From contig NC_135898.1 in the NCBI RefSeq assembly GCF_964194155.1, positions 24,428,001 through 24,492,000 of the forward strand: DNA of 64,000 nt, given 5' to 3'. Shown piece after piece: positions 13,460 through 64,000 of this stretch. The translations under genes and the position numbers were made by a program. The notes beneath the pieces were generated by a model that was given only the letters and a program-made list of their open reading frames with translations, was not told the DNA's origin and did not search any database. Source of the DNA: Cetorhinus maximus. Its lineage: Eukaryota. How positions within the stretch are numbered: position 1 is the stretch's first letter; each line of letters opens with the position of its first letter.

Positions 13460-13591
13460 AAAAGCAAAATACTGCGGATGCTGGAAATCAAAAACAAAAA
13501 CAGAAAATGCTGGAAAAACTCAGCAGATCTAACAGCATTTGTGGAGAGATAAACAGAGTTAACGTTTCGAGTCCGTATGACTCTTCTTCTT
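13460..13591 (-). mobile_element. Short Penelope-tail repeat at the unit junction (also at about 25873, 39388 and 51829)
   Basis: AAAAGCAAAATACTGCGGATGCTGGAAAT...AACGTTTCGAGTCCGTATGACTCTTC is the reverse complement of the 487-621 family. Confidence 0.78.
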
Positions 13592-16220
13592 TCACCCAAT
13601 GTGAATAAATTTAGTGCCTTGACCTTTCTTCACAAAGCTAATCTCCTTTCCATTGTTTCCCGGTATTTTCAGCAATTTGGGGAGACAAGTGTCAAGAATG
13701 AGTAAAGAACATTAAAAATTATCTTCCAGAGGAAATCTTTCCCCATGCCATCAAACACCAGAAGCCTTGCCTTTCAATTTTTTTCACTTTATTTGTTCTT
13801 GGGATGTGAGCATCGCTGGCAAGCCCAGCATTTGTTGCCCATCCCTAATTGTGCTTGAACTGAGTGGATTGCTAAGGCTACCTCAGAGAGAAGGTAAGAG
13901 TCAACACATTGCTGTGGGTCTGGAGTCATGTAGGCCAGACCGGGTAAGGACAACAGCTTTCCTTTCCTGAAGAGCATTGCTGATGGGTTTTTGTAACAAT
14001 CTGGTAGTTTCATGATCATCATTACCAAGACTGGCAGTTAAATCCATATTTATTAATTAATTGAATTTAAATTCCCCCACCCCCCACTCCCATAGTGGGA
14101 TTCAAACTCATGTCTCCTGTCCTAGTAACATTACCACTATGCTACCATCTCCATGGGTTATGTCATATGGACTATCCAGTCACTTATAAATAACAGATAA
14201 TAACAGGCTAACCACGACTCTATGAACATTTACACAGGTTGGGATGAATTTACACATGAGCAGGGAACCCACAACAAGTGATATTGTATCGCTCTCCAGT
14301 TCAAAACTTGGTGCAATATTCAATTCCACTGCCTGTTTTGGAAAACTGAAAACTGAATATAATGTGTGTCTTGTAATGCTCATCAAATCCCAATTACCAC
14401 AACTGCCCCCCAAACTCCTGTCAACGTGTGATGCAACTGCTCACAGTGTGAGCTGAGAAAGCTTATTTTACATGAGGTTACTGAGCTCATAGTGAAATGG
14501 CATGCCACAGTTTCCTGGGAACATTCCCTCAGGGTAAGTGAGGTCTGCATTGTTCACTCCGTCATCTCACTTAAAGGAAGTTAATACCACTGACCACTCT
14601 GTGCAAAGTTGAAACCAGGGCTGATTATTCAGTACTGAGCCATATAGTGTTGGATTACACAGGTGGGGACACCATGGTTTGCATTTTTGCAAGATCCTTC
14701 CCTATTTGTACAAGAGACCGGATACATTTCCAGTCCTTTGCAAGCATGAAACATTACCTCAGGGAACGTGATCTAACGCAAGAACACACACAGCTCAGGA
14801 AATGTGTCACTCCTTTTTTCTACCTGTGCGATTGTACTTTTAGCGTCTCATCTTTTGTCTCCAGGTTTAGTGTATCAGGAAGAAATAGGGAAGCATAAAC
14901 TCATGGAATCGTACAACACAGAAGGAAGCCACTTGGCCCATCGTGCCTGTGTCTTTGGAAGAGCGATTCAATTGGTCCCACTCCTCTACTCCTTCTCTCT
15001 AACCTTGAAAATTTTGCCTTTTTTAAGTATTTATCCAATGGCCTTTTGAAAGATATTATTGAATCTGCTTCCACATATCTTACAGAGAGTGCATTCCAGA
15101 TCATGACTCACTGTGTTTATAAATACAAAATCTTCTCATCTTCCCTCTGGTTCTGTTGCCAATTATCTTAATTCTCTGCCGTCCCTCCACCTTATGAAGT
15201 ATCAATCCTACCTTGGCCAATGCATGTTCATCCCGGGCATAGGTAAATTTGCAGCCCCTGAGACGAGCTGAATTGAGAAACAGACTACAGCTGTTCCCAT
15301 GTGCGTGCACTGAGCTAAACATCAGCTGCTGCTGAAAGACCGTCAACTCAGTGCAAGACGTTTTTGATCTTCTTTAAACTTCATAGAAGTCACAGAAAGT
15401 TTACAGCACAGAAAGGGGTCACTCTGCCCATCATATCTGTGCTGGTCAAAAGCGACCCCCCCACCCCTCCCCTCCCCCAGCCTCATCCCACTTTCCAGCA
15501 TTCGGTCCGTAGCCCTGCAGGTTACAATTGAGGTGCGCATCCAGGCACCTTTTAAATGAGTTGGGTGTTTCTGCCTTCACTTCCTTTTCAGGCAGTGAGT
15601 CCCAGACCCCCAGCATCCCTCTAGGTGAAAAAAGGTTTCTTCATTCCCCACTGTAATCTTTCTACCAATCACTTTAAATCTGTCCACTAGTCTGCTTGCT
15701 GATCTCCCAGTGCAAATGGCAGTTATCAAGTGTTGCAGGCTGGCACATTCCAAGGTCCAGGGCTATGTGCTGAGGAACATACTTGGGGCAGCCAGTGCAA
15801 TGTTTCACTGGTGAAAGGACATGGTCTAAGGCCCCCCCACCATAGTACAGCAAGGGGCTGGTACCTGTGTAAAACCTCTCGGGTTGTATGCAAGAGAGAA
15901 TGTTTGACATGAGATGTAAATGTACATTGTAAATACAACTTGTAATGGCAAGTGTAGTGAGGTACCTCATGCACTGTATTGAAAGAAACTGACCTGTATT
16001 GCATTTTATCTCATGCTAAATGTGAAACGTCATGTATTGAGGCTTCACAATTTTTGTGATTAAAGTATATTTCTGAAGGAAAAAATCTGAATTGAGAAAC
16101 AGAAAGAAACATGCTACAGGTGCAAATGGAAATCTGTAAACTCATCGGTTGAAAATAAGATGTCAACGTTTCAGCAGATGGGTTAGAGGAACATTGAGCA
16201 CATGGGACTAGGAATTGCAG

Positions 16221-17130
16221 AACAAAAATAAAAATACCTGGAAAAACTCAGCAGGTCTGACAGCATCTGCGGAGGGGAACACAGTTAACGTTTCGATTCC
16301 ATATGACTCTTCAACAGAACTAAGGAAAAATAGAAAAGAGGTGAAATAAGGGGGGCTGGGACAAGTAGAGCTGGATAGAGGGCCAGCGATAGGTGGAGAT
16401 TGCCCTTTTGTCTATGACATCTTTTGGCTAAGACGTGTTGAAGGTGGTGATATTATCTAAGGAATGTGCTAACAGGTGACATTGAGGATAGAAAGCAGGA
16501 TGAGCAACGTACAGATAGCCCTAGTGGGGGTGTGGTGGGGGTGCGGGGAAGGGAGCAAAATAGGCTAATAGGTAGAGATAAAACAATGGATGGAAATACA
16601 TTTAAAAATAATGCAAATAGTTGGCAAAAGAAAAATCTATATAAATTATTGTAAAAAAGGGGGATCGGAAAGGGGGTTAGGATGGAAGAGAGAATTCATG
16701 ATCTAAAATTGTTGAACTCAAAATTCAGTCCGGAAAGCTGTAAAGTGCCTAGTCGGAAGATGAGGTGCTGTTCCTCCAGTCTGGGTTGAGCTTCACTGGA
16801 ACAATGCAGCAAGCCAAGGACGCACATGTGGGTATGAGAGCAGGGTGGAGTGTTGAAATGGCAAGCGACAGGGAGGTCTGGGTCATGCTTGCTCACAGAC
16901 CGAAGGTGTTCCAGTCTGCGTTTGGTCTCTCCAATGTAGAGGAAACCGCATTGGGAGCAGCGAATGCAGTAGACTAAATTGAGGGAAGTGCAAATGAAGT
17001 GCTGCTTCACTTGAAAGGAGTGTTTGCGCCCTTGGACGGTGAGGAGAGGGGAAATAAAGGGGCAGGTGTTGCACCTTCGGCGGTTGCATTGGAAGATGTG
17101 GTGGGAGGGGGTTGAAGTGTAGGGGGTGAT
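16221..17130 (-). mobile_element. Truncated Penelope-like element (GIY-YIG endonuclease region plus tail) with target-site duplication
   Basis: ORF 16696-17010 reads NLVYCIRCSQCGFLYIGETKRR...HFN, a GIY-YIG motif. Flanked by the direct repeat GAATTGCAG at 16212-16220 and 17131-17139. Confidence 0.88.
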
Positions 17131-17296
17131 GAATTGCAGTGATCGTCCGTGGTCGGACTAGTTTCCCAGCATTGTTACGCTCAATACATTACACTGCGGT
17201 GTTAAAATAACAGCCAGGTACCATCAAAAATACCTGAACTTTGTTTTTTAAATCTTCTCGATTTTCAAACTTTGGGTGGGTGCCAACAACTAATTT

Positions 17297-17417
17297 GGGA
17301 ATATGCGCTAAACTGAGGAACTTTTCAGAACCCACTACGCAATCATAAAATTTCCAACCACAAAAAGGAACAGCAAGCTCAAAGGGGCGGAGCATGTGGA
17401 ACACACAATGTATAAAA
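17297..17417 (+). promoter_or_regulatory. Proximal promoter of il1b copy 1: kappaB-like, ETS/PU.1-like and C/EBP-like motifs, GC box, TATA
   Basis: GGGAATATGC 17297-17306; AACTGAGGAACTT about 17311-17323; CTACGCAAT 17335-17343; GGGGCGGAG 17384-17392; TATAAAA 17411-17417, which is 98 bp upstream of the ATG. These are motif matches only. Confidence 0.7.
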
Positions 17418-17508
17418 GGAGGGCTGAGGGCTGGTTGTGTGTAGAACGATACAGCAAGATATAACTCAAACAAGTGATAGGTTCAAACTTACCGTGGACA
17501 TAAGAGAG

Positions 17509-20500
17509 ATGAGAACTGAAGTAGGACCTGTGACCATTCCAATGGTTGAGAATGAATCGCGAAGGTAAGATGATGGATTTATTTAATGTTTATATGCAAA
17601 CTGAGTGATCATAGTCTCTCTCCCTCTCTAACCTGGATATGTTTGCAGCTGCAAACTACAGAATACTTTTCTGTGATTTTTCTTATCACAGAGAAAGTTT
17701 GGAGAAATGATTTGGTTTTAGCAGGGCTTGACTGACCTCATGTTAAAATTTTAAGGCATAGTTTATATTCCAGCCGTCGGGCTAAGAAATGGAGATGTGG
17801 GGAGTTCCCCTGGGACGTTGATTATCCATAACATTAGCGGCAAAGCTTAGAGTTTTGTGAAGAAACTGTAATAATTTCCGAAAACAAAAACAAAAAAACA
17901 GCCTCTCGTTTTATGAGAAATAGCCGTAAAAGGAATTCTTCCTGCCCACACCTACCCACCACCTGTAAAATCCCAGTCTGGTTCTGTGATCACCACCAGC
18001 AGCAGCTGTGTGCATGTGGTGCAGCGGTCACTCTCTTCCTTTCATCCCCTTCCTGTACAATACTCCTGGCCTTCACGGTCACACAGGTGGTTGAGGAGTG
18101 CAAGGGATAGTTAGTGCGGATTCTGCGTGTGTATACGCCATCACACTGCTCTTAACACCACAATGGAATAAGTGTATATTTCAAACTACATTACCAGACA
18201 CCAACAGAAGAGTGTTTTATATTTACCGTTGAACCAGCTGGTTGCAGCTTTCCTGTGTTAATCAGCCAAGGAAGCCAAATTTAGCTTCTTTCATATAAGC
18301 TGACTGTGATGTTTGCTCTATCCACAGAACCCTCGGTTACAAATGCAACAAGGATTCACGTCTCACTTCTCCGACTCTCTGCCCCCAGATCAAGGTAAGA
18401 ATCTTTCACTGCAATTCCATCAGACTGATATTGGGAGGGGGAGAACATGCATTGGGCTAAAGTTAGAGTAAACTTGAGTCAGTAAATGTTCAACTCCTCT
18501 GAAAGAGCAGAATTCACGAAGCAACCCTGGGAAAAGCACCTTGACAGTGCAGGGTTTGAATTCCCAGGCCCACAGCTCATCTTTCATGGAGTAATCTTTC
18601 ATTTCGAGGCCCTTTTACAAGTAGGTTGGAGGCTCGGCTGACATGAAAGGAATCCGCAAGATCTGATCGCACTCTCTCATTTTCACAGAGCCCTTTTCAA
18701 GAGACTGCACCCAACCTAATGGAGACCAGCAGCGCCAGCAGCGCCAGTTGCCAAGCAGAGCGAGTGAGTTACCAGCTGCAAATCAGCAGCACATCCTCAG
18801 CCATCACGGCAGTTGGCAATGCCAGCCTCTCACTGGAACAGGCTGTCATGTTAGTCCTGGCTGTTGAGAAATTCAAACAGAAATTGAAGCAGCCCTCTGG
18901 TGACGGCTGGGAATACGATGGCGGCTCTTTCATGGACACTGACTTGCTGGGGAACTTCAGTGCGATCATCGAAGGTAAGATGTGCTTTCCCCTTCAGTGT
19001 TGCCTTTCTGTTAATGCTGACCTCGGGGTCGGGGTAGGGTGGTGTCCGACTTGGTAGTTGTGCGGGGGGCGGGGGGGGGGGTGGGTGTGGGGGAGGGTGG
19101 AGGAGGGCACAACTTCCACTGACCAACGTGGCATCTGGGCTCATCGCCACCTGCCGCTGGTGGCTTCAGTGTTTCTGTTGATGGTGATCCTGAGTCCCAG
19201 GGAGAAGCCATCTCCTGGTAACTCAGGCCGGGCATCGAGCATGGCCTTATGCAGCAGCGCCCGGCAACAAATACTAAAGAAAAGTAGTGGCCTGAGGGTT
19301 CATTTAGGCTGATTCGTCTCCGCTCACCCGCACTGGTGAATAAACCGTTTGGATTTGTGCCCACAGAAGCCACCACCTGCAGCAGCTATGATGCTGCTGA
19401 AAATGTGAGCAGCACTTACAGATTCGTGTCGAGCGAATGCCACCAGATGAAGGATGATCAAGACAGATCCCTGATCCTCTCGGAGAATCTCCAGCTCCTG
19501 GCCATGTCCTTGCAGCAGCCAAAGAATGCAGGTGGGTACATCTCAGCTAGTGTCCCTCTCTGCAGCAGTGAAAATAAGAGGAAAGTTGGTGGCGGTGTGT
19601 GGGGAGGGTGCGGGCAGGACAAAGGATCCGGAGATTCCCTTGACTCCCCCATTGGGCAGGCGCTGACCCTTGGCTGGGATGCAGGGGTCACTTGAGCTCA
19701 GTATCTCACTCGCATGGGCCATTGGTAATGTGAGGCAAAAGTGTCATCAAGCCATTGTGGCATTGTGTGGGCACGGCCATGCCTAACTAATGAGCATGCA
19801 CAGGGAGCCCCTGACTCATTTCCCTTGGCCAAGCAGTGCTGAGACCAATTGCAATGCTCCTGTGACTGGTTTGGTTAGCCTGAACCTGATGACCAGCTGG
19901 TCTGCAAAGCTCCCAAATGCTGCGACGATGCATTTGCCCAGTTAAAACTGGAGAGCCGCACTTCTATTCACCTTGCTCGCAATGTGCATTGACTACTGTG
20001 CTAAAATGGTGCTTCTTTGATTTCCAGTTCAATTGGATATGAGGTACTACAAGACAGCTGCAGGCAATGACGTTGAAGGTTTGCCTGTTGTTCTGAAAAT
20101 CAGCAGCCAGAATCTGTACCTCTCATGCACGGGACCACAAGACAGACCCATCATGCAGCTGGAGGTAAGAGATCCCACAAGTGCACACAGTTAACTGACA
20201 GGTGGCAGTGGTGGTGAGCCACAGTTCAGCCAGGGAGTCCAGGTTGCTTTGGCAGGCATGTCATATTCTAGAGCTATGGATAGTGGAGGCTCCAATTTTC
20301 TCTCCATCACCAGGAATCTCTCCTGCTCTTAACCACCTTGGTGGTACCACTATTAGTGTGTGTTGGAAGGATTTGCAGGATGATACTCTATCTGTTTAGC
20401 CATGCTATGAACACACCTTCTTTGGTCATCAAGGCCTGGGGTGGGAATTGAACCTGGAGCTTCTCAGAGGCAGGGATGTTACCCACTGCACCACATGACC

Positions 20501-21187
20501 TTCTAGCTGACAAATAGACAGTCGCATATCATTGCTATCTTGAGGATCTGCCCGTTTGCCCTTGTTCATACCATACAAGCTGCATGTATCAGAGGACTCA
20601 GTCCCTGTTCCCTTCACTCTGGCTGTGAGCCCATCCACGGGGTCCCTGTGAATTCTGGCTCCGCAGCCTCGGGAAGCCTCCTCCCACTGGGATATGGGTT
20701 CCACGGATGATGACCACAACTCATGTACTTCAAGGAGTCTGGGCAGAGCCCTAATATCAGGGCACCAGCCCTCGCATTCACACGAGTTGACTGCCCCCAG
20801 GAAAGAAAAGGGATGGTAACAGGATTAGGGTTAAATTCGCTCAAATATTGCAGGCTCGGAACCATCAGCCCTTGTTCAGGAATCGGGCCTGAAATGAAAC
20901 CAGCCGCATCTCCCTCTCGTCAGATATAGAATGGCATTTAACTTTGTCCATTTTTTTTGTTTCTCTTTGCACAGAAATGGGACCAGAATCTGAAGAATAT
21001 CAACGGCGCCACTGACCTGCTTCGATTTGTGTTCTTTAAGAAGGTCTTCAGCTCTGGCCTGCACTTTGAGCTTGAATCAGCCAAGTACCACGGCTGGTAC
21101 ATCAGCACATCCAAAAAGAACAGACAGCCTGTCGAGATGGATGAGAAGGAGAACCACAAGCGAATCACAGTCTTCACAGCTGATTGA
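17509..21187 (+). CDS. il1b: Interleukin-1 beta-like precursor, copy 1 (A type); 6 coding exons, 307 aa
   Basis: Exons 17509-17564, 18328-18394, 18689-18974, 19367-19531, 20028-20164 and 20975-21187. All introns are GT-AG with phases 2,0,1,1,0, as in mammalian IL1B coding exons. The 924 nt spliced CDS is open: MRTEVGPVTIPMVENESRR...LEQAVMLVLAVEKFK...MKDDQDRSLILS...LPVVLKISSQNLYLSC...LLRFVFFKK...FELESAKYHGWYISTSKKNRQPV...VFTAD*. It has an IL-1 family signature-like motif, no signal peptide, an upstream TATA box and an AU-rich 3' UTR. Confidence 0.93.
17800..17809. promoter_or_regulatory. Consensus NF-kappaB site in il1b intron 1 (also at 31348, 43764 and 57309)
   Basis: GGGAGTTCCC, within GGGGAGTTCCCC, matches GGGRNWYYCC exactly and is identical in all four copies. 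Confidence 0.6.
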
Positions 21188-21590
21188 GACCATCTCAGTC
21201 TCAGCACAGTTCACAACCCAAATCAGAAGTAGTTGGTTTAGAGAGAGAGTGTGTATGTACAAAGTACAGAATTTTAAATCCATTGGGGTCAGATGAGTCT
21301 AATGGGTAGCTGATAAAATTGTCATTTAATTAAAACCTAACCAAAATAATTTATGTAAAATCGTCAGTGAAGTACAGGTGGCAATATTTGCTACTGTTTT
21401 TCGTGTGTGTTATTTACATTTAAACTTGAGTGAGTCTAAGCTGTCATGTTTGGTAACTTGAATATAAGTAATTATTTAATTTTTTAAATATTTAATATTA
21501 TTATTATTTAAATTCTTCATTAATTTATTACTGTACTGGATACAGTCTCTTCCTTTCTTGATTAAATTAAGTTATTTTTCAAACACATTG
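21188..21590 (+). promoter_or_regulatory. il1b copy 1 3' UTR with AU-rich instability elements and a probable polyA signal
   Basis: Multiple ATTTA pentamers between about 21320 and 21530, including TTATTTAA contexts; ATTAAA at 21561-21566. The same block follows each of the other copies. Confidence 0.75.
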
Positions 21591-22422
21591 GGTTCCATGT
21601 ACATTTTTACACATTTCCATGAAAGTTTTGTTGATACAGAAGAAAATGTGGAAGATCACAGCATCTCTGCAGTGTAAAAAGCTGCCCCATTCCCTTAGAC
21701 TCTTTGGAATCTCCGTTGTTTATTCATTTCCCACTTCCCTCACACTCTGTTGGATAACCCCTGAATGTTTTTCATCCAGTCCTGGGGACAAGGTTCGTTA
21801 AGAACCAAAAAACAGGCACAGTGACCGCAATCCACAATTAACGCGCTGCTTGCTCATCTAAACGATTGCATCAGGTTACAAGTGCCATCCGCATGCCTCA
21901 GCATCCCACTCACACTGAGCAAAATTTTACAATGATAACCAACTGTCAATCACTCCTCCCTGACTCGCTAATTTGTAAGAGTCCCGGGGTTGAGCCGATT
22001 AACCCTTTCACTCTCCAGTTCCAAAATGATATCAAGTGGTAATCCTTATTGGTGACAGTGGTTGGAATTTATTCAGTATAAATAAGACTTGACACATGCT
22101 AATGCCTGAGCAGTGGAATGAAGACCCAACAATTGCACTGCCCATTACTCCCTGCTTAGAAGTGTGATCTACACGTGACTACCTTCCGGCCCTGCACCAA
22201 TGACCATGCCCGAGGTTCCATTGCCCCTCAGTATGCCATACGTACTCACTCCACCTGGGTCCTTCCACCCGGGATCAACTACAGAATGGCCCCAATCCCC
22301 CAGTCAAATGCATCTACACCTTAGGTGCTTCGGGAATCCTTTCTTCACTTCACCCACACTGCAACGTCTATGGTGACTGACGGAATGCAATCATTGGCTT
22401 GTTATTGTCCAATTATAAGACA

Positions 22423-22825
22423 TGTTTTCCTCGGAGAAGGGAAGGTTGCGAGGTGATTTGATAGAGGTGTTCAAAATCATGAGCGGTCTGGACAGAATAG
22501 ATAGGGAGAAACTGTTCCCATTGGTGGCAAGAGCGTGAATGAGAGAGCACAGATTTAAGATCATTCGCAAAAGTGATACGAGGAAAGCTTTATCACACAG
22601 CAAGTTGTTAAAGTCTGCAATGCACTGCCTGAGAGTGTGGTGGAGACAGGTTCAATCCATGGTATTCTAAAGGGAATTGGATTGTTAAGTGAAAAGTAGG
22701 AGTGTGCAGGGTTATAGGGAGAAGGCGGGAGAATGGCACTCGGTGAATTGCTCATTCGAAGAGCTGATGCAGGCACAATGGGCTGAATGGCCTCGGTCTG
22801 TGCTGTAACCATTGTGTGATTCTGT
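22423..22825 (+). mobile_element. CR1 LINE 3' end (repeated in each unit)
   Basis: TTTTCCTCGGAGAAGGGAAGGTTGCGAGGTGATTTGATAGAGGTGTTCAAAATCATG (RLRGDLIEVFKIM), ending with GGCTGAATGGCCTC...TGTGCTGTAACC. Confidence 0.82.
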
Positions 22826-23074
22826 CATGTAGCCATCTACCAGTCCAGATCAGGTCGGTGTTCAGTCATCTGTTTTCCCACCCTCGACCGTTGTCAGCTA
22901 GTAAACATACCAAAGAAACTCAATAACCGCACATGGGCAGTCAAGGTCAGTCAATTCATTCTCAAATGCCATATCGTACCAACTGCACCAGCAGCCTCAC
23001 ACCCTGCTCAATGGAGTACACCCGCATCACTCAGCTACCAACAGTAGCTATCACTCACAATGCATCACTCACAT

Positions 23075-24510
23075 TCACAAGTCGGTGGACAGGCTTTGGG
23101 GTGTCAGGAGGTGAGTAACTTGCTGTAGAATTCTCAGCATTGCTGACCCGCTTTTGTAGCCAGCGTATTTCGATGGCTGGTCCAGTTCAGTTTCAATGCT
23201 AAGCCCCCAGGAAGTTGATAGTGGAGGATTCGGTGAGGATAATTCCATTGAATGTCAAGGGACGATGATTAGATTCTCTCTTGTTGAGATGGTCATTGAC
23301 TGTCTCATAAAAATATAATAATTTTCCTGAGATTATTGTGATTTACTATAAAAGTGGGATAATAGTGGGGTTTGGAGCATTTTCTCTGTGTCTATGTGTT
23401 TGGAGGATTTAATTGAATGGAAACAGCTGGCCTGGAGGTTTTGAGTTATCAACAACAACTTAGGCTTGAAATGCTAAATACATGAACATGGCTGAAGTTT
23501 TGTAATGTGAGGTGTGAGGAACATTTGCATTTTTAGATAAATTAGAGTAGTTTGAATTTCAAAGAGATGGTAAGATCTTCCACTTAGTCAGAAGAAGCTA
23601 AGCCAAACAGTGTGTTTAGTTATCCCAAAGGTTACTGATAAAATTAGTACTATGAAAGATTTATATTATGAGAACAGCAAAGATGCAAAGATACATTGGA
23701 ACAACGGAATTTGCATTAAAAATGGAGAAACATGTATAAAGGAGATGAGGCTATGTGTAAGAGGAGAAGGCTATTTAAGAACTAGCACAAATCTGAAAAG
23801 CCTCTAGCCTCTGTGGATCAAGTTGCTGTCCACAGGAGCCGTAACTGAGAAAGCTCATTTCAAATGCGACTGTCCAGGGTATTGTGTTGCTTTACCTGGG
23901 GCTTTTTAAATCTGTTTGTTCTTACTGTTGCCTTAACGGACGTCCATCTGGAGTCAGGTTAATTTGGGGTTTTGGAAGTTATTATAATAGTAATTTATAG
24001 ACTTTTGTATCTGCTTGAAATCTTTTCTTTTAATAAGTGTTTAATTTAGTTTTCTAAAAACCTCTGAAGTCGTGGTAGTCTCATTACTTCTGAATTCAAG
24101 GCACGCATCTTGTAATTAAATACAAATTGCAAAACAGTTGTGACCACGTGATCAAGTTTCTCTGGTGGATTTGACCAATGTGGCATGCATCATCTGCCAC
24201 ACCTGGCACTTGTGGCACTTGTTACTTGCCACTTATCAGTCCAAGCCTGAATGTTGTCTAGTGCTTGATGGATATGGGCACAAACTCCTTCAGCATCTGA
24301 GGAGTGGTGAATGGTGCTGAACATTGTGCAATCAGCAGAACACACCCCTACTTCTGACATTATGATGGAGGGAAGGTCACTAATGAAGCAGCTGAAGATG
24401 GTTGAGTCTAGCACACTGCCCTGAGGAACTCCTGCAGTGATGTCCTAGGGCTGAGATGATTAGTCTCCGACAACCATAACTATCTTCCTTTGTGCTCGAT
24501 TTGACTTCTT
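23075..24510 (-). mobile_element. CR1-type LINE fragment interrupted by a 0.9-kb insert (repeated in each unit)
   Basis: The minus ORF 24190-24414 reads FSCFISDLPSII..EVGV.SADC...DNIQAWTDKWQVT; same family as 3110-3630. Confidence 0.75.
23301..24201. mobile_element. LTR-like 0.9-kb insert (also at 36829-37715, 49258-50157 and 62790-63676)
   Basis: TGT...ACA termini; it splits the LINE sequence GGTCATTGCC|TGGCACTTG with a short CC/CCTG duplication. No coding motifs were found. Confidence 0.55.
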
Positions 24511-30674: not shown

Positions 30675-30842
30675 AGGAATTGCAGTGATCGACCGTGGTC
30701 TGACTAGTTTCCCAGCATTGTTACGCTCAATACATTACACTGCGGTGTCAAAATGACAGCCAGGTACCATCAAAAATACCTGAGCTTTGTTTTTTAAATC
30801 TTCTCGATTTTCAAACTTTGGGTGGGTGCCAACAACTAATTT

Positions 30843-30965
30843 CGGAATATCCGCTAAACTGAGGAACTTTTCAGAACCCACTACGCAATCATAAAATTTC
30901 CAACCACAAAAAGGAACAGCAAGCTCAAAGGGGCGGAGCATGTGGAACACACACAATGTATAAAA
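30843..30965 (+). promoter_or_regulatory. Proximal promoter of il1b copy 2
   Basis: Same layout as copy 1; TATAAAA at 30959-30965. Confidence 0.68.
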
Positions 30966-31056
30966 GGAGGGCTGAGGGCTGGTTGTGTGTAGAACGATAC
31001 AGCAAGATATAACTCAAACAACTGATAGGTTCAAACTTACCGTGGACATAAGAGAG

Positions 31057-53888: not shown

Positions 53889-55160
53889 TGATGACGCCAC
53901 TTTCAAAAACGGTTACTCTGACATGTCTTCCTTCTTCGTTAACCGAGGTTTTCCACCCACGGTGGTTGACAGGACCCTCAACTGTGTCCGGCCCATCTCC
54001 CGTGCATCCACTCTCACACCTTCTTCTCCCTCTCAGAAACATGATAGGGTCCCCCTTGTCCTCACTTATCACCCCACCAGCCTCCGCATTTAAAGGATCA
54101 TCCTCCGCCATTTCCGCCAACTCCAGCATGATGCCACCACAAAACACATCTTCCCTTCAACCCCCCTAGTGTCATTCTGCAGGGATCATTCCCACCGGGA
54201 CACCCTGGTCCACTCCTCCATCACCCCCTACACCTCAAACCCCTCCTACGGCACCTTCCCATGCAACCGCAGAAGGTGCAACACCTGCCCCTTTACTTCC
54301 CCTCTCCTCACCGTTCAAGGGCCCAAACACTCCCTTCAAATGAAGCAGCATTTCACTTGCACTTCCCTCAACTTAGTCTACTGCATTCGTTGCTACCAAT
54401 GCGGTTTCCTCTACATTGGAGAGACCAAATGCAGACAGGGAGACCGCTTTGCAGAACACCTGCGGTCTGTCCACAAGCATTACCCAGACCTCTCTGTCGC
54501 TTGCCATTTCAACACTCCACCATGCTCTCATGCCCACTGTCCGTCCTTGGCTTGCTGCATTGTTCCAGTGAAGCTCAACGCAAACAGGAGGAACAGCACC
54601 TCATCTTCCCACAAGGCACTTTACAGCCTCCCAGACTGAATATTGAGTTCAACAATTTTAGATCATGAACTCTCTATTCCATCCCCACCCCCTTTCCGAT
54701 TTTCCTCCTCCTTTTTGTTTTTTCCAATAATTTATATAGATTTTTCTTTTTCCACCTACTTCCATTATTTTTAAGTATATTTCCATCCATTGTTTTATCA
54801 CTTCCTTTTAGCCTATTTCGATCCCTTCCCCCCACCCCACCCCCACTAGGGCTATCTGTACCTTGCTCATCCTGCTTTCTACCCTTAATTAGCATGTTCC
54901 TTTAGATAATATCATCACCTTCAACACCTCTTTGGCCTTTTGTCTGTGCATCTTTTGGTTATCTCCACCTATCACTGGCCCTCTATCCAGCTCTTCTTGT
55001 CCCACACCCCCACCCCCTCCCCTTAAACCAGCTTATATTTCACATTTCTTCTATTTTTACTTAAATCTCTTCAAGGGTCATTCGGACTCAAAACGTTAAC
55101 TGTGCTCCTCTCCGCAGATGCTGCCACACCTGCTGAGTTTTTCCACGTATTTTTGTTTTT
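53889..55160 (+). mobile_element. B-unit-specific Penelope-like insertion, copy in B'
   Basis: Near-identical to 27933-29205 with the same junctions; ORF 54169-54639. Confidence 0.9.
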
Positions 55161-55724
55161 ACTTTAAATCTGTCCCCTAGTCTGCTTGCTGGTCTCCCAG
55201 TGCAAATGGCAGTCATCAAATGTTGCAGGCTGGCACATTCCAAGGTCCAGGACTATGTGCTGAGGAACATACTTGGGGCAGCCAGTGAAAGTTTCACAGG
55301 TGAAAGGACATGGTCTAAGGCCCCCCCCCCCCCCCCCCCCAGCAATAGTACAGCAAGGGGCTGGTACCTGTGTAAAACCTCTCGGGTTGTATGCAAGCTA
55401 GAATGTTTGACATGAGATGTAAATGTACATTATAAATACAACTTGTAATGGCAAGTGTAGTGAGGTACCTCATGCACTGTATTGAAAAAACTGACCTGTA
55501 TTTCATTTTATCTCGTGCTAAATGTGAAACGTCATGTATTGAGGCTTCACAATTTTTGTGATTAAAGTATATTTCTGAGGGGAAAAAATCTGAATTGAGA
55601 AACAGAAAGAAACATGCTACAGGTGCAAATGGAAATCTGTAAACTCATCGGTTGAAAATAAGATGTCCACGTTTCAGCAGGTGGGTTAGAGGAACATAGA
55701 GCACACGGGACTAGGAATTGCAGT

Positions 55725-56635
55725 CCAAAAATAAAAATACCTGGAAAAACTCAGCACGTCTGACAGCATTTGCGGAGAGGAACACAGTTAATATTTCAAG
55801 TCCGTATGTCTCTTCAACAGAACTAAGGGAAACTAGAAAAGAGGTGAAATATAAGCTGATTTGGGGTGTGGGGGGGTGGGGCAAGTAGAGCTGGATAGAG
55901 GGCCAGTGATAGGTGGAGATAGCCAAAAGATGTCATAGATAAAAGGAAAAAGAGGTGTTGAAGGTGGTGATATTATCTATGGAAAGTGCTAATAGGTGAC
56001 ATTGAGGGTAGAAAGCAGGATGAGCAAGGTACAGATAGCCCGAGTGGGTGTGGGGAAGCGATCGAAATAGGCTAAAATGTAGAGATAAAACAATGGATGG
56101 AAATACATTTAAAAATAATGGAAATAGGTGGGAAAAGAAAAATCTATATAAATTATTGTAAAAAAGGGGGATCGGAAAGTGGGTGGGGATGGAAGAGGGA
56201 GTTCATGATCTAAAATTGTTGAACTCAATATTCAGTCAGGAAAGCTGTAAAGTGCCTAGTCGGAAGATGAGGTGCTGTTTCTCCAGTTTGCGTTGAGCTT
56301 CACTGGGATAATGCAGCAGGCCAAGGACGCACATGTGGGTATGAGAGCAGGGTGGTGTGTTGAAATGGCAAGCGACAGGGAGGTCTGGGTCATGCTTGCT
56401 CACAGACCGAAGGTGTTCCAGTCTGCGTTTGCTCTCTCCAACGTAGAGGAAACCGCATTGGGAGCAGTGAATGCAGTAGACTAAATTGAGGGGAGTGCAA
56501 ATGAAGTGCTGCCTCACTTGAAAGGAATGTTTGGGCCTTTGGACGGTGAGGAGAGGGGAAATAAAGGGGCAGGTGTTGCACCTTCTGCGGTTGCATGGGA
56601 AGATGTGGTGGGATGGGGTTGATGTGTAGGGGGTG
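55725..56635 (-). mobile_element. Penelope-like element, the same insertion as duplicated in unit B'
   Basis: GIY-YIG ORF 56236-56517; TSD AGGAATTGCAGT on both sides. Confidence 0.87.
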
Positions 56636-56803
56636 AGGAATTGCAGTGATCGTCCGTGGTCTGACTAGTTTCCCAGCATTGTTACGCTCAATACATTACA
56701 CTGCGGTGTCAAAATGACAGCCAGGTACCATCAAAAATACCTGAGCTTTGTTTTTTAAATCTTCTCGATTTTCAAACTTTGGGTGGGTGCCAACAACTAA
56801 TTT

Positions 56804-56926
56804 GGGAATATCCGCTAAACTGAGGAACTTTTCAGAACCCACTACGCAATCATAAAATTTCCAACCACAAAAAGGAACAGCAAGCTCAAAGGGGCGGAGC
56901 ATGCGGAACACACACAATGTATAAAA
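56804..56926 (+). promoter_or_regulatory. Proximal promoter of il1b copy 4
   Basis: Same layout as copy 1; TATAAAA at 56920-56926. Confidence 0.65.
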
Positions 56927-57017
56927 GGAGGGCTGAGGGCTGGTTGTGTGTAGAACGATACAGCAAGATATAACTCAAACAACTGATAGGTTCAAACTTA
57001 CCGTGGACATAAGAGAG

Positions 57018-60000
57018 ATGAGAACTGAAGTAGGACCTGTGACCATTCCAATGGTTGAGAATGAATCGCGAAGGTAAGATGATGGATTTATTTAATGTTT
57101 ATATGCAAACTGAGTGATCATAGTCTCTCTCCCTCTCTAACCTGGATATGTTTGCAGCTGCAAACTACAGAATACTTTTCTGTGATTTTTCTTATCACAG
57201 AGAAAGTTTGGAGAAATGATTTGGTTTTAGCAGGGCTTGACTGACCTCATGTTAAAATTTTAAGGCATAGTTTATATTCCAGCCGTCGGGCTAAGAAATG
57301 GAGATGTGGGGAGTTCCCCTGGGACGTTGATTATCCATAACATTAGCGGCAAAGCTTAGAGTTTTGTGAAGAAATTGTAATAATTTCCGAAAACAAAAAA
57401 ACAGCCTCTCGTTTTATGAGGAATAGCCGTAAAAGGAATTCTTCCTGCCCACACCTACCCACCACCTGTAAAATCCCAATCTGGTTCTGTGATCACCACC
57501 AGCAGCAGCTGTGTGCATGTGGTGCAGCGGTCACTCTCTTCCTTTCATCCCCTTCCTGTACAATATTCCTGGCCTTCACGGTCACACAGGTGGTTGAGGA
57601 GTGCAAGGGATAGTTAGTGCGGATTCTGCGTGTGCATATGCCATCACACTGCTCTTAACACCACAATGGGATAAGTGTATATTTCAAACTACAGTACCAG
57701 ACGCCAACAGAAGAGTGTTTTATATTTACTGTTGAACCAGCTGGTTGCAGCTTTCCTGTGTTAATCAGCCAAGGAAGCCAAATTTAGCTTTTTTCATATA
57801 AGCTGACTGTGATGTTTGCTCTATCCACAGAACCCTCGGTTACAAATGCAACAAGGATTCACGTCTCACTTCTCCGACTCTCTGCCCCCAGATCAAGGTA
57901 AGAATCTTTCACTGCAATTCCATCAGACTGATATTGGGAGGGGGAGAACATGCATTGGGCTAAAGTTAGAGTAAGCTTGAGTCAGTAAATGTTCAACTCC
58001 TCTGAAAGAGCAGAATTCACGAAGCAACCCTGGGCAAAGCACCTTGACAGTTCAGGGTTTGAATTCCCAGGCCCACAGCTCATCTTTCATGGAGTAATCT
58101 TTCATTTCGAGGCCCTTTTACAAGTAGGTTGGAGGCTCGGCTGACATGAAAGGAATCCGCAAGATCTGATCGCACTCTCTCATTTTCACAGAGCACCTTT
58201 CAAGAGACTGCACCCAACCTAATGGAGACCAGCAGCGCCAGCAGCGCCAGTTGCCAAGCAGAGCGAGTGAGTTACCAGCTGCAAATCAGCAGCACATCCT
58301 CAGCCATCACGGCAGTTGGCAATGCCAGCCTCTCACTGGAACAGGCTGTCATGTTAGTCCTGGCTGTTGAGAAATTCAAACAGAAATTGAAGCAGCCCTC
58401 TGGTGACGGCTGGGAATACGATGGCGGCTCTTTCATGGACACTGACTTGCTGGGGAACTTCAGTGCGATCATCGAAGGTAAGATGTGCTTTCCCCTTCAG
58501 TGTTGCCTTTCTGTTAATGCTGACCTCGGGGTCGGGGTAGGGTGGTGTCCGACTTGGTAGTTGTGAAGGGGGGGGGGTGTGGGGGAGGGTGGAGGAGGGC
58601 ACAACTTCCACTGACCAACGTGGCATCTGGGCTCATCGCCACCTGCCGCTGGTGGCTTCAGTGTTTCTGTTGATGGTGATCCTGAGTCCCAGGGAGATGC
58701 CATCTCCTGGTAACTCAGGCTGGGCATCGAGCATGGCCTTATGCAGCAGCGCCCGGCAACAAATACTAAAGGAAAGTAGTGGCCTGAGGGTTCATTTAGG
58801 CTGATTCGTCTCCGCTCACCCGCACTGGTGAATAAACCGTTTGGATTTGTGCCCACAGAAGCCACCACCTGCAGCAGCTATGATGCTGCTGAAAATGTGA
58901 GCAGCACTTACAGATTCTTGTCGAGCGAACGCCACCAGATGAAGGATGATCAAGACAGATCCCTGATCCTCTCGGAGAATCTCCAGCTCCTGGCCATGTC
59001 CTTGCAGCAGCCAAAGAATGCAGGTGGGTACATCTCAGCTAGTGTCCCTCTCTGCAGCAGTGAAAATAAGAGGAAAGTTGGTGGCGGTGTGTGGGGAGGG
59101 TGCGGGCAGGACAAAGGATCCGGAGATTCCCTTGACTCCCCCATTGGGCAGGCGCTGACCCTTGGCTGGGATGCAGGGGTCACTTGAGCTCAGTATCTCA
59201 CTCGCATGGGCCATTGGTAATGTGAGGCAAAAGTGTCATCAAGCCATTGTGGCATTGTGTGGGCACGGCCATGCCTAACTAATGGGCATGCACAGGGAGC
59301 CCCTGACTCATTTCCCTTGGCCAAGCAGTGCTGAGACCAATTGCAATGCTCCTGTGACTGGTTTGGTTAGCCTGAACCTGATGACCAGCTGGTCTGCAAA
59401 GCTCCCAAATGCTGCGACGATGCATTTGCCCAGTTAAAACTGGAGAGCCGCACTTCTATTCACCTTGCTCGCAATGTGCATTGACTACTGTGCTAAAATG
59501 GTGCTTCTTTGATTTCCAGTTTAATTGGATATGAGGTACTACAAGACAGCTGCAGGCAATGACGTTGAAGGTTTGCCTGTTGTTCTGAAAATCAGCAGCC
59601 AGAATCTGTACCTCTCATGCACGGGACCACAAGACAGACCCATCATGCAGCTGGAGGTAAGAGATCCCACAAGTGCACACAGTTAACTGACAGGTGGCAG
59701 TGGTGGTGAGCCACAGTTCAGCCAGGGAGTCCAGGTTGCTTTGGCAGGCATGTCATATTCTAGAGCTATGGATAGTAGAGGCTCCAATTTTCTCTCCATC
59801 ACCAGGAATCTCTCCTGCTCTTAACCACCTTGGTGGTACCACTATTAGTGTGTGTTGGAAGGATTTGCAGGATGATACTCTATCTGTTTGGCCATGCTAT
59901 GAACACACCTTCTTTGGTCATCAAGGCCTGGGGTGGGAATTGAACCTGGAGCTTCTCAGAGGCAGGGATGTTACCCACTGCACCACATGACCTTCTAGCT

Positions 60001-60680
60001 GACAAATAGACAGTCGCATATCATTGCTATCTTGAGGATCTGCCCGTTTGCCCTTGTTCATACCATACAAGCTGCATGTATCAGAGGACTCAGTCCCTGT
60101 TCCCTTCACTCTGGCTGTGAGCCCATCCACGGGGTCCCTGTGAATTCTGGCTCCGCAGCCTCGGGAAGCCTCCTCCCACTGGGATATGGGTTCCACGGAT
60201 GATGACCACAACTCATGTACTTCAAGGAGTCTGGGCAGAGCCCTAATATCAGGGCACCAGCCCTCGCATTCACACGAGTTGACTGCCCCCAGGAAAGAAA
60301 AGGGATGGTAACAGGATTAGGGTTAAATTCGCTCAAATATTGCAGGCTCGGAACCATCAGCCCTTGTTCAGGAATCGGGCCTGAAATGAAACCAGCCGCA
60401 TCTCCCTCTCGTCAGATATAGAATGGCATTTAACTTTGTCCATTTTTTTTTGTTTCTCTTTGCACAGAAATGGGACCAGAATCTGAAGAATATCAACGGC
60501 GCCACTGACCTGCTTCGATTTGTGTTCTTTAAGAAGGTCTTCAGCTCTGGCCTGCACTTTGAGCTTGAATCAGCCAAGTACCACGGCTGGTACATCAGCA
60601 CATCCAAAAAGAACAGACAGCCTGTCGAGATGGATGAGAAGGAGAACCACAAGCGAATCACAGTCTTCACAACTGATTGA
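57018..60680 (+). pseudogene. il1b: Interleukin-1 beta-like copy 4 (B type) with premature stop Q193*; probable pseudogene or null copy
   Basis: Exons 57018-57073, 57831-57897, 58192-58477, 58859-59023, 59520-59656 and 60468-60680. Exon 5 reads cag|TT TAA TTG (TAA at 59522-59524) where copies 1-3 read cag|TT CAA TTG. Also carries P43T, V157L, C161R and A306T. Confidence 0.8.
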
Positions 60681-63600
60681 GACCATCTCAGTCTCAGCAC
60701 AGTTCACAACCCAAATCAGAAGTAGTTGGTTTAGAGAGAGAGTGTGTATGTACTAAGTACAGAATTTTAAATCCATTGGGGTCAGATGAGTCTAATGGGT
60801 AGCTGATAAAATTGTCATTTAATTAAAACCTAACCAAAATAATTTATGTAAAATCGTCAGTGAAGTACAGGTGGCAATATTTGCTACTGTTTTTCATGTG
60901 TATTATTTACATTTAAACTTGAGTGAGTCTAAATTGTCATGTTTTGTAACTTGAATATAAGTAATTATTTAATTTTTTAAATATTTAATATTATTATTAT
61001 TTAAATTCTTCATTAATTTATTACTGTACTGGATACAGTCTCTTCCTTTCTTGATTAAATTAAGTTATTTTTCAAACACATTGGGTTCCATGTACATTTT
61101 TACACATTTCCATGAAAGTTTTGTTGATACAGAAGAAAATGTGGAAGATCACAGCATCTCTGCAGTGTAAAAAGCTGCCCCATTCCCTTAGACACTTTGG
61201 AATCTCCGCTGTTTCTTCATTTCCCACTTCCCTCACACTCTGTTGGATAACCCCTGAATGTTTTTCATCCAGTCCTGGGGACAAGGTTCGTTAAGAACCA
61301 AAAAACAGGCACAGTGACCACAATCCACAACGCGCTGCTTGCTCATCTAAACGATTGCATCAGGTTACAAGTACCATCCGCATGCCTCAGCATCCCACTC
61401 ACACTGAGCAAAATTTTACAACGATAACCAACTGTCAATCACTCCTCCCTGACTCGCTAATTTGTAAGAGTCCCGGGGTTGAGCCGATTAACCCTTGCAC
61501 TCTCCAGTTCCAAAATGATGTCAAGTGGTAATCCTTAAGGGTGACAGTGGTTGGAATTTATTCAGTATAAATAAGACTTGACACATGCTAATGCCTGAGC
61601 AGTGGAATGAAGACCCAACAATTGCACTGCCCATTACTCCCTGCTTAGAAGTGTGATCTACACGAGACTACCTTCCGGCCCTGCACCAATGGCCATGCCC
61701 GAGGTTCCATTGCCCCTCAGTATGCCATACGTACTCACTCCACCTGGGTCCTTCCACCCGGGATCAACTACAGAATGGCCCCAATCCCCCAGTCAAATGC
61801 ATCTACACCTTAGGTGCTTCGGGAATCCTTTCTTCACTTCACCCACACTGCAATGTCTATGGTGACTGACGGAATGCAATCATTGGCTTGTTATTGTCCA
61901 ATTATAAGACATGTTTTCCTCGGAGAAGGGAAGGTTGCGAGGTGATTTGATAGAGGTGTTCAAAATCATGAGCGGTCTGGACAGAATAGATAGGGAGAAA
62001 AAGTTCCCATTGGTGGCAGGAGCGTGAATGAGAGGGCACAGATTTAAGATCATTCGCAAAAGTGTTACGAGGAAAGCTTTATCACACAGCAAGTTGTTAA
62101 AGTCTGCAATGCACTGCCTGAGAGTGTGGTGGAGACAGGTTCAATCCATGGTATTCTAAAGGGAATTGGATTGTTAAGTGAAAAGTAGGAGTGTGCAGGG
62201 TTATAGGGAGAAGGCGGGAGAATGGCCCTCGGTGAATTGCTCATTCGAAGAGCTGATGCAGGCACAATGGGCTGAATGGCCTCGGTCTGTGCTGTAACCA
62301 TTGTGTGATTCTGTCATGTAGCCATCTACCAGTCCAGATCAGGTCGGTGTTCAGTCATCTGTTTTCCCACCCTCGACCGTTGTCAGCTAGTAAACATACC
62401 AAAGAAACTCAATAACCGCACATGGGCAGTCAAGGTCAGTCAATTCATTCTCAAATGCCATATCGTACCAACTGCACCAGCAGCCTCACACCCTGCTCAA
62501 TGGAGTACACCCGCATCACTCAGCTATCAACAGTAGCTATCACTCACAATGCATCACTCACATTCACAAGTCGGTGGACAGGCTTTGGGGTGTCAGGAGG
62601 TGAGTAACTTGCTGTAGAATTCTCAGCATTGCTGACCCGCTTTTGTAGCCAGCGTATTTCGATGGCTGGTCCAGTTCAGTTTCAATGCTAAGCCCCCAGG
62701 AAGTTGATAGTGGAGGATTCGGTGAGGATAATTCCATTGAATGTCAAGGGACGATGATTAGATTCTCTCTTGTTCAGATGGTCATTGCCTGTCACATAAA
62801 AATATAATAATTTTCCTGAGATTATTGTGATTTACTATAAAAGTGGGTTAATAGTGGGGTTTGGAGCATTTTCTCTGTGTCTATGTGTGTGGAGGATTTA
62901 ATTGAATGGAAACAGCTGGCCTGGAGGTTTTGAGTTATCAACAACAAGTTAGGCTTGAAAGGCTAAATACGTGAACATGGCTGAAGTTTTGTAATGTGAG
63001 GTGTGAGGAACATATGCATTTTTAGGAAAATTAGAGTAGTTTGAATTTCAAAGAGATGGTAAGATCTTCCACTTAGTCAGAAGAAGCTAAGCCAAACAGT
63101 GTGTTTATTTTTCCCAAAGGTTACTGATAAAATTAGTACTATGAAAGATTTATATTATGAGAAAAGCAAAGATGCAAAGATACATTGGAACAATGGAATT
63201 TGCATTAAAAATGGAGAAACATTTATAAAGGAGATGAGGCTATGTGTAAGAGGAGAAGGCTTTCTAAGCCTCCGGCCTCTGTGGATCAAGTTGCTGTCCA
63301 CAGGAGCCGAAACTGAGAAAGCTCATTTCAAATGCGACTGTCCAGGGTATTGTGTTGCTTTACCTGGGTCTTTTTAAATCTATTTGTTCTTACTGTTGCC
63401 TTAACGGAGGTCCGTTATCTGGGAGTCAGGTTAATTGGGGGTTTTAGAAGTTATTATAACAGTAATTTATACACTTATGTATCCGCTTGAAATCTTTTCT
63501 TTTGTTAATAAATGTTTAATTTAGTTTTCTAAAAACCTCTGAAGTCATGGTAGTCTCATTACTTCTGAATTCAAGGCACGCATCTTGTAATTAAATACAA

Positions 63601-64000
63601 ATTGCAAAACAGTTGTGACCACGTGATCAAGTTTCTCTGGTGGATTTGACCAATGTGGCATGCATCATCTGCCACACCTGGCACTTGTGGCACTTGTTAC
63701 TTGCCACTTATCAGTCCAAGCCTGAATGTTGTCCAGTTCTTGATGGATATGGGCACAAACTCCTTCAGCATCTGAGGAGTGGTGAATGGTGCTGAATATT
63801 GTGTAATCAGCAGAAAACACCCCTACTTCTGACATTATGATGGAGTGAAGGTCACTAATGGAGCAGCTGAAGATGGTTGAGTCTAGCACACTGCCCTGAG
63901 GAAATCCTGCAGTGATGTCCTAGGGCTGAGATAATTGGTCTCCAACAATGACAACTATCTTCCTTGGTGCTTGATTTGACTTCTTTCAAATGCCCAGTAA

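Follow-up and report, generated by a model that had tools for sequence, protein, structure and literature searches.

The IL1B locus of the basking shark (Cetorhinus maximus) was found to contain six IL-1β genes arranged head-to-tail over ~83 kb, four of which lie in the window, that is, the whole 64,000-nucleotide stretch of DNA analyzed here. With a probability of roughly 70%, these tandem copies arose by unequal recombination at 130-bp repeat ends, and the genes have been kept uniform by conversion. IL-1β is usually regarded as a one-gene, tightly controlled cytokine. The original prediction, made from the window alone, described a whole-gene tandem amplification of IL-1β with at least four copies in a probable shark and suggested that more copies may follow. 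The six-exon genes are indeed complete in all four window copies, on the plus strand, two further copies lie to the right, bringing the total to six, and the proteins of this genome are labelled Cetorhinus maximus by NCBI.

Organization of the array

A search of the assembly yielded six matches for every exon scored, all within the single array. No IL1B gene was found elsewhere in the assembly, where one further PF00340 match lies on C2, and no degenerate additional copy was detected in a search of 213 kb surrounding the array; the 264 kb that include the array contain no N bases. Self-BLAST aligned positions 13459–38039 with 39387–64000 at 98.2% identity, and adjoining units at 96.2%. The units are not uniform, because a 1.27-kb Penelope-like insertion is present in three of the six (type B), giving the order A-B-A-B-B-A. 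Units 2, 4 and 5 are mutually within 0.8–1.2%. The units and repeats are as follows (window coordinates):

13459..13589, minus strand: left array boundary, a ~130-bp Penelope-like retroelement end fragment at which unit homology starts
13459..25871, plus strand: unit 1 (type A, 12,413 bp)
16222..17131, minus strand: older Penelope-like fragment upstream of the promoter, in all six units (at most 7.4% diverged between units)
25872..26002, minus strand: junction 1/2, with right-flank sequence, the common 130-bp repeat end, then left-flank sequence
25872..39386, plus strand: unit 2 (type B, 13,515 bp)
27933..29205, plus strand: Penelope-like insertion restricted to type B, carrying a GIY-YIG-like frame, in place of 163 bp of type A (other copies at 53889–55160 and in unit 5)
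39387..51827, plus strand: unit 3 (type A, 12,441 bp)
51828..64000, plus strand: unit 4 (type B), extending 1.3 kb past the window edge
39387, 51828 and two positions outside the window: other junctions, in identical register
Right of the window, in order: unit 5 (type B, copy 5 intact), unit 6 (type A), whose copy 6 is interrupted by a stop at codon 66, a nest of Penelope-like sequence 6.1 kb long, and the repeat end that bounds the array on the right

All five junctions change from right-flank-like to left-flank-like sequence at the 130-bp repeat end, which also marks both array boundaries. This one register of the five junctions, at a repeat end that recurs at the array bounds, points to repeat-mediated unequal recombination. 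The right array edge differs from the internal junctions at 30–33 of 407–408 sites. We take the boundary repeats to be Penelope-like elements from their domain content (reverse transcriptase and GIY-YIG endonuclease); in decayed copies these domains score below the Pfam cut-offs (RVT_1, E=3.3e-5; GIY-YIG, E=0.004–0.1), and Atlas matches of the element at 0.96–0.97 are to clusters with GIY-YIG on 12–44% of members. Between units, the B insertion shows 2–7 differences in 1,272 bp.

Identity and integrity of the gene copies

Several lines of evidence support the assignment of the array genes to IL-1β, as originally predicted. The C-terminal IL-1 domain (Pfam PF00340) was detected at residues 186–304 with 68.4 bits (cut-off 25), and among PDB sequences IL-1β scored highest (62 bits), followed by “IL-1 family member 5” (36), IL-37 (27) and IL-1α (25.5). 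In a tree built without other IL-1 family members, the Cetorhinus proteins nest among shark and ray IL-1β. Linkage to CKAP2L is a criterion for IL1B (PMC5861070, PMC7144542), and a CKAP2-family gene was located at C21:24553440-24572281, 39 kb beyond copy 6, with a PurA-family gene at C21:24728452; from their positions, these are presumably CKAP2L and PURB. The propeptide family PF02394 (cut-off 24.9) reached 17 bits on the exon-3 frame and 18.7 bits on the Carcharodon protein, and P0001 gave no match to it; ~150 residues lie upstream of the part matching solved IL-1β. A β-trefoil fold is predicted solely from that match, the AlphaFold2 model of the protein being unusable (mean pLDDT 35, pTM 0.20). 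A shark IL-1 was not cleaved by human caspase-1, according to the available text of PMC9382457. The gene features, described for copy 1 where recurrent, are as follows:

17411..17417, plus strand: TATA box, 98 bp upstream of the ATG, in 6/6 copies
17509..21187, plus strand: IL-1β copy 1, intact, 307 aa (coding exons 17509–17564, 18328–18394, 18689–18974, 19367–19531, 20028–20164 and 20975–21187)
17800..17809, plus strand: candidate kappaB site (strict consensus, by sequence) in intron 1, in 6/6 copies
21188..21600, plus strand: AU-rich 3′ UTR with 8 ATTTA and two ATTAAA signals
31057..34718, plus strand: IL-1β copy 2, intact
43473..47144, plus strand: IL-1β copy 3, intact
57018..60680, plus strand: IL-1β copy 4, premature stop Q193*

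In all four window copies the five introns are GT-AG, and the coding sequence comprises 307 codons and a stop. As read in the assembly, four of the six copies (1, 2, 3 and 5) are intact and two (4 and 6) carry premature stops. The coding sequences in the window differ at 4–6 of 924 nt; the earlier statement that the copies differ at 2–4 of 307 residues was right in that differences are few, but the range is 2–5 codons and includes the nonsense change Q193* of copy 4, which had been overlooked. This stop lies at the start of exon 5, ~130 nt ahead of the last junction, so the product is predicted to be either a decay target or truncated ahead of most of the cytokine domain. Copy 6 carries R66* together with an in-frame 9-bp deletion in exon 1. 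Sites that tell the copies apart lie at codons 10, 22, 157, 161, 303 and 306, among them the alternative forms Val157/Cys161 and Leu157/Arg161.

The promoter, the intronic kappaB site and the AU-rich 3′ UTR described for each copy were recovered in all six. ATTTA occurs 8 times in 480 nt of 3′ UTR in every copy (0.9 expected), whereas the kappaB count by itself does not exceed chance, with a background of 0.16 per kb, or ~2 per unit.

Run X20, guessed to be RNA, yielded one 189-bp contig within exon 6, together with low depth in exon-bearing bins and zero in unique intergenic bins, a hint at most that was not counted. In capture run X21, from another sample, a few off-target reads fell over the gene and nearly none in unique flank, too few to count.

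Divergence within the array and between species

In unit 1, a homogenized tract extends over 17320..22050, from the proximal promoter to ~500 bp beyond the poly(A) signal, with equivalents in the window at 30866–35578, 43282–48007 and 56827–61539. Between deeply split units, this ~4.7-kb tract, introns included, differs by 0.7–1.0% compared with 3–6% in the flanks; mean pairwise divergence between units is 0.85% in introns, 0.54% in coding sequence and 3.6–5.3% in flanks. The contrast between introns and flanks holds for transversions and at non-CpG sites, where 38 of 2,504 intron sites and 348 of 4,534 flank sites segregate, although the Fisher p of 1e-32 is overstated because sites are not independent. 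Two-changepoint fits placed the start of the low tract at 17320–17600 in seven of eight pairs tested, with a log-likelihood gain of 63–116 against at most 9.6 in the best of 30 permutations (run on a coarser grid than the fits); the eighth pair, units 2 and 4, is young throughout. The tract is not uniformly flat, since six segregating sites of intron 5 fall in one 191-bp stretch. Trees of the units from upstream, gene and downstream sequence conflict.

The related species used for comparison (organism B) differs from unit 1 at 210 of 4,064 sites in the gene region (5.2%) and at 114 of 2,016 in unique flank (5.7%). Its gene region is thus about as diverged as its unique flank, which indicates that the introns are not constrained, and the low-divergence dip over the gene seen inside the array is absent between species. 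In a matched upstream interval, units are up to 5.3% apart and organism B 4.5%.

As the DNA between the genes has diverged far more than the genes themselves, the array is likely to be an old one maintained by conversion and not a new formation, and gene conversion is the likely best explanation of the near-identical genes. Judged from divergence levels only, the first duplication would be about as old as the split from the related species; repeat-rich flanks may mutate faster, which would inflate this age. The ages are relative, as no usable date was found for the Cetorhinidae-Lamnidae split, and absolute dating with the epaulette shark rate of 7e-10 per generation was set aside because a rough hand estimate gave implausibly old ages. 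The original term “recent” accordingly suits just the expansion of the type-B units and not the root of the array.

Depth ratios for organism B were 2.0, 2.7, 3.2 and 3.3 in its four runs, in line with about three copies; copy-number variation was not read from them, as the low value belongs to the shallowest run. Among its 32 listed pieces, no contig crossed a junction. Its alleles match unit 6, or units 3 and 6, at 4 of 13 positions, which may be ancestral and was not taken as shared polymorphism. The Cys/Arg difference at residue 161 in both lamniforms was likewise rejected as evidence, being at a CpG site, with Cys also in Pristis.

Proposed history and comparison with known systems

In the proposed history, misaligned recombination between same-orientation Penelope-like ends around a single ancestral gene would probably have produced the first duplicate, no later than roughly the time at which the related species split off. 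Later unequal crossovers, the step held with most confidence, would have enlarged the array, the Penelope-like insertion marking a B lineage whose spread would be ~ten times younger. Promoter, exons, introns and UTR would very probably have stayed within ~1% of one another through gene conversion between non-allelic copies, or through paired crossovers to the same effect, as the repeat-rich spacers drifted apart. Last, with nearly an even chance, four intact copies with near-identical promoters may raise inducible IL-1β output, and selection for a uniform product may help homogeneity; that two of the six copies are broken argues against strong selection on every copy.

Only this last step is contested by a neutral account, somewhat short of even odds in our judgment, in which origin and conversion are the same but copy number drifts and dose is not selected. 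Conversion would survive over the gene because no other stretch poor in repeats and free of insertions is as long, or because recombination is concentrated there. The stops in two copies agree with this, as does the tract itself, which begins ~190 bp past the Penelope-like fragment and stops where repeats resume; conversion is known to be ended by insertions and divergence (PMC3924837, available text). Yet the tract also spans the functional unit, from proximal promoter to beyond the poly(A) signal, additional IL-1β proteins recur in at least seven other shark and ray species, and part of one source offers a precedent for similarity retained under dosage selection.

That all six copies are young and their flanks differ through hypermutable repeats is very improbable. 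The few coding differences in the window and the closeness of units 2, 4 and 5 would suit such an origin, but flank divergence of 3–8% includes non-CpG sites and transversions, lineage-specific insertions are present, and approximately equal gene and flank rates between species make the 5-fold gap inside the array unexpected, which largely refutes it. Purifying selection on introns and UTRs would equally hold old copies alike, and enhancers can sit in cytokine introns, as the kappaB-consensus site in intron 1 might suggest; it is nevertheless highly improbable, because, across the same intron-rich intervals, divergence from organism B is 3.9–6.3% and that between the units no more than 0.5–2.0%. 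We give almost no credence to a false assembly duplication of one or two real copies: near-identical tandem copies beside a large satellite block are where assemblies generally fail, and none of the listed contigs spans a whole unit, but the closest two units are 0.76% apart and most 2–5%, X1 contigs and the assembly disagree at 1 of 4,349 bases in unique flank, and non-unit-1 alleles occur on contigs at intermediate depth. Read depth, proposed originally as the check on this point, makes an artefact unlikely, contig depth (a rough proxy for copy number) over the gene being 6.9x (X1) and 4.5x (X2) that of unique flank in one sample, possibly the source of the assembly.

NCBI lists five Cetorhinus “interleukin-1 beta-like” proteins (XP_078421459.1 and four more), four of 307 aa and one of 213 aa. 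The Cetorhinus proteins are 98.4–99.3% identical among themselves and 90.5–92.1% to Carcharodon, and the protein tree groups by species (Cetorhinus 99/95, Carcharodon 96/94), so that over the gene paralogues are closer to each other than to orthologues. Independent duplications would yield the same tree, which therefore does not establish a shared origin of the array. It is conceivable, though unlikely, that IL1B is recurrently multi-copy in sharks and rays, with a mackerel-shark array predating the basking/white-shark split and re-homogenized in each species by conversion under dose selection, individuals still varying in copy number.

Multiple IL-1β copies are not unique to the basking shark. 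For several further shark and ray species (at least seven), databases hold 2–3 IL-1β-like proteins, for which a tandem layout is suggested by the protein records and some records may be alleles or haplotigs; in Rhincodon, both accessions represent a single sequence, placed on two contigs of which the larger measures 78 kb. Hypanus, Hemitrygon and Mobula have two such proteins each, the records of each pair lying on contigs of equal size. These pairs are 88–90% identical and cluster by paralogue across species (96/88, 99/95), which indicates an old duplication that escaped conversion, a fate opposite to that of the Cetorhinus array. Duplications of the same kind can be compared here in two fates, homogenized in mackerel sharks and diverged in stingrays, and at the present locus the tract is bounded and the breakpoint can be recovered. 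The mechanism is already known, and nothing new is claimed on protein function.

A 2002 catshark paper reportedly described six exons and a Southern blot hint of two or more IL-1β copies. The literature search found no publication on a six-copy shark IL-1β array. The catshark protein (Q802S3/XP_038641593) is of the same family and locus, the Cetorhinus protein being 70% identical to it, but the database records of chondrichthyan IL-1β, unlike the present locus analysis, do not treat array structure, origin or conversion. Most anamniote genomes have one IL1 gene, and trout and carp have two copies, according to the text available of a 2022 paper (PMC9382457). For cartilaginous fishes, the six copies here and the 2–3 proteins in several sharks and rays alter the one-gene picture; in practice, shark IL-1β qPCR, RNA-seq and phylogenies may sum or mis-date several genes.

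The original premise that IL1B is single-copy in mammals does not hold in the pig, which has an IL1B1/IL1B2 tandem pair (PMC5777074, in the part available). IL1B is thus duplicated in the pig, as in trout and carp and in teleosts (type I/II IL-1β), but each of these is a pair whose members have diverged in sequence or expression, or come from genome duplication, whereas the Cetorhinus copies are six and near-identical. Further likenesses are the mammalian KRTAP1 tandem genes, which are concerted over the gene with diverging flanks and for which the accessible portion of the report invokes gene conversion (bioRxiv 10.1101/282418), and Arabidopsis halleri HMA4, with tandem copies and gene conversion (PMC3749932, as far as its accessible text goes). 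Set against these systems, the Cetorhinus tract takes in ~190 bp 5′ of the ATG, 2.7 kb of introns and ~500 bp beyond the poly(A) signal, and, unlike either, the array encodes a pro-inflammatory cytokine.

Gene copies and identity of the array

In a self-comparison, the repeat spanned position 13459 to the end of the window, with 96.2% identity between adjacent units and 98.2% at a spacing of two units. The four complete genes of the original prediction were recovered within the window. Each comprises 307 codons in six coding exons, and the introns are GT-AG; a stop at codon 193 of copy 4 had been overlooked. Near-identity also stood (4–6 of 924 nucleotides differ among window copies), at 2–5 codons rather than the 2–4 residues claimed. 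As anticipated, further copies lie to the right, giving six in total.

Units of the IL-1β array (numbering continues past the window edge; position on the contig, C21, is the number + 24,428,000)
Unit 1: starts at 13459
Unit 2: starts at 25872; 1.27-kb insertion (B type)
Unit 3: starts at 39387
Unit 4: starts at 51828; 1.27-kb insertion (B type)
Unit 5: starts at 65347; 1.27-kb insertion (B type); copy 5 at 70551–74222, beyond the edge, intact
Unit 6: starts at 78871; copy 6 at 82963–86627, beyond the edge, with a premature stop (codon 66) and 9 bp deleted in frame from exon 1

A genome search with exon 4 gave six matches, every one on C21, and a protein search gave 30 exon matches, five per copy, with none outside the array. 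The predicted intronic kappaB site (a consensus match in intron 1) and AU-rich UTR were present in all six copies, as was a TATA box; ATTTA was enriched in the UTR (8 observed vs 0.9 expected), the kappaB site count was not enriched over expectation, and the kappaB-like promoter site of copy 6 is altered.

The six-copy IL1B array is real. No gaps occur in the 264 kb of sequence examined around it, and the units differ by 0.76–5.4%, plus private insertions, which exceeds what two haplotypes could supply. Long gene contigs were 6.9x and 4.5x deeper than unique-flank contigs in two runs of one sample; contig depth is not copy number, and the sample may be the source of the assembly, so this ratio tests the assembly rather than the population.

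Of 30 candidate proteins, 15 were matched by the last exon, and every one of these is named as IL-1β or IL-1β-like from a shark, ray or chimaera. The match at 100% was a Cetorhinus maximus protein; its cluster comprises three Carcharodon proteins and five from Cetorhinus, of which four are 307 aa long and one is 213 aa. Variant residues pair the four 307-aa proteins with copies 1, 2, 3 and 5, and the 213-aa protein is likely the record of the copy 6 product. The Pfam IL1 score was 68 bits, solved IL-1β structures scored above every other IL-1 family chain, and a CKAP2-family and a PurA-family gene lie 39 kb and 214 kb downstream, in agreement with the IL1B neighbourhood in the accessible parts of PMC5861070 and PMC7144542. 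Because of these matches and neighbours, the array is identified, at the level of sequence, as the IL1B locus itself. Elsewhere, a weak PF00340 match (E=0.034; G000:C2:223204447-223204623, on another contig) is possibly another IL-1 family gene.

Architecture and surroundings

The 130-bp end of one repeat stands at both outer edges in the same orientation (13459–13589 and 96824–96953). Its family shows weak reverse-transcriptase and GIY-YIG matches, hence the label Penelope-like. A single unequal recombination between the two edge repeat ends would leave the junctions observed, and is proposed because all five share one register: about 45 bp of right-flank sequence, the repeat end, then left-flank sequence. 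A further 586 bp, repetitive by depth, is present at the internal junctions and absent from the right edge. The insertion of B units replaced 163 bp, and a 6.1-kb nest (90315–96411) with an 11-bp target-site duplication interrupts unit 6 at 90314, the unit resuming at 96412.

The new insertion of the B units pairs with an older upstream element as a ~950-bp inverted repeat, 85% identical (28261–30678 and 54217–56639), whose end lies about 300 bp upstream of the TATA box. Two decayed fragments in the unique left flank (6080–6963 and 11435–12266), 70% alike, are presumably LINE-like. Farther left, a satellite block of at least 50 kb with a 23-bp unit (L020-L015, G000:C21:24348001 to ~24398400) ends ~43 kb from the array, and the interval from there to the window contains more minisatellite-like repeats. 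Downstream of the CKAP2-family gene is a second local duplication (L010-L012, G000:C21:24584376-24612000; period ~15 kb, with 96% identity across 12.4 kb). It contains decayed retrotransposon-like frames, and none of its content was recognised as a host gene.

Divergence along the unit and age

Divergence was uneven along the unit, as profiled after removal of columns within 5 of a gap, misaligned positions 15500–15690 and all columns past 24870.

Mean pairwise divergence among units
Far upstream: 4.0%
Old repeat upstream: 5.3%
Proximal upstream: 2.4%
CDS: 0.54%
Introns: 0.85%
UTR: 0.9%
Downstream: 2.0%, then 3.6% farther out

The contrast between gene and flank persisted without CpG sites and in transversions. 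Changepoint fits, covering eight of the 15 unit pairs, placed a low tract from 17320–17600 to 22020–22120 in four unit-6 pairs, which differ by 0.7–1.0% inside the tract and 3.1–6.4% outside; two pairs have a tract that runs on to ~23250, and in one it reaches 21137.

Constraint on the gene region was weighed against conversion using organism B, a relative sharing a fifth of sampled words. Divergence of its contigs from unit 1 was 5.2% for the gene region and 5.7% for unique flank (run X11; substitutions only, longest pieces among those listed). Between species, introns thus keep pace with the flanks; within the array, their divergence is about one fifth that of the flanks. Conversion rather than constraint therefore likely explains the uniform introns, and the units are mosaics, since regional trees conflict. 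Conversion gives duplicates a young appearance, a mechanism described in the accessible part of PMC3924837.

Within the array, flank divergence at its deepest equals or exceeds that to organism B: 5.3% vs 4.5% in one matched interval, with ~6% downstream of copy 6 and 7.4–8.1% at the right edge. The first duplication probably predates the split from organism B (roughly two chances in three). The amplification had been called recent; this holds for the B units, which are young (2–7 differences in the 1,272-bp insertion), whereas the six-copy array is likely older than coding identity implies, given its species-level flank divergence.

Other species, dose and comparison with known systems

Among the 10 of 15 matched clusters looked up, three proteins were found in Carcharodon (98–99% alike) and in Mustelus (99.3–99.7%), two full-length proteins in Chiloscyllium punctatum, and two each in Hypanus, Hemitrygon and both Mobula species; no second gene was found in the clusters of both catsharks, Heterodontus, skates, Narcine, Hemiscyllium or Callorhinchus. 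A catshark Southern blot reportedly hinted at two or more IL-1β copies. Depth ratios in organism B were 2.0–3.3. Tandem arrangement in the other species is inferred, from protein records alone. In a protein tree of 37 rows, from which the 213-aa protein was left out, the lamniform copies of each species clustered together, and those of stingrays and mantas fell into two paralogue groups that run across species. The two paralogues retained in stingrays and mantas have diverged to 88–90% identity (proteins P0008, P0010, P0026-P0030, P0040). Four Pristis pectinata "isoforms" (P0005, P0035-P0037) are equal in length and 93–99% alike, with substitutions scattered as a mosaic; annotation may here have merged at least two genes.

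Promoters and UTRs are nearly identical among the four intact copies, and the encoded proteins, 98–99% alike, come in two forms that differ at residues 157/161, close to where the cytokine domain begins. All four copies would be co-induced and feed a single IL-1β pool. Decay is predicted for copy 4, because its stop lies ~130 nt upstream of the last junction, and copy 6 might, given translation restart, yield a 213-aa product with the entire cytokine domain. Recurrence of the multi-copy state across lineages would favour selection on IL-1β dose, and the presence of two broken copies counts against it.

The copies are already in the NCBI annotation, and a search that lay mostly outside subscription journals turned up no publication on multiple IL1B copies in sharks or on conversion at this locus. 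Most anamniotes have one IL1 gene according to the accessible text of PMC9382457, that of PMC13736523 describes a screen of 11 chondrichthyan genomes for a different IL-1 subfamily, and those of PMC6795676, PMC11886822 and bioRxiv 10.64898/2026.07.03.736391 do not mention IL1B copy number. The mechanism is known and the gene is unexpected for it: the array pattern matches that of the mammalian tandem KRTAP1 genes, as far as the accessible text describes it (bioRxiv 10.1101/282418), but the homogenised pattern here, unlike that one, takes in introns and promoter.
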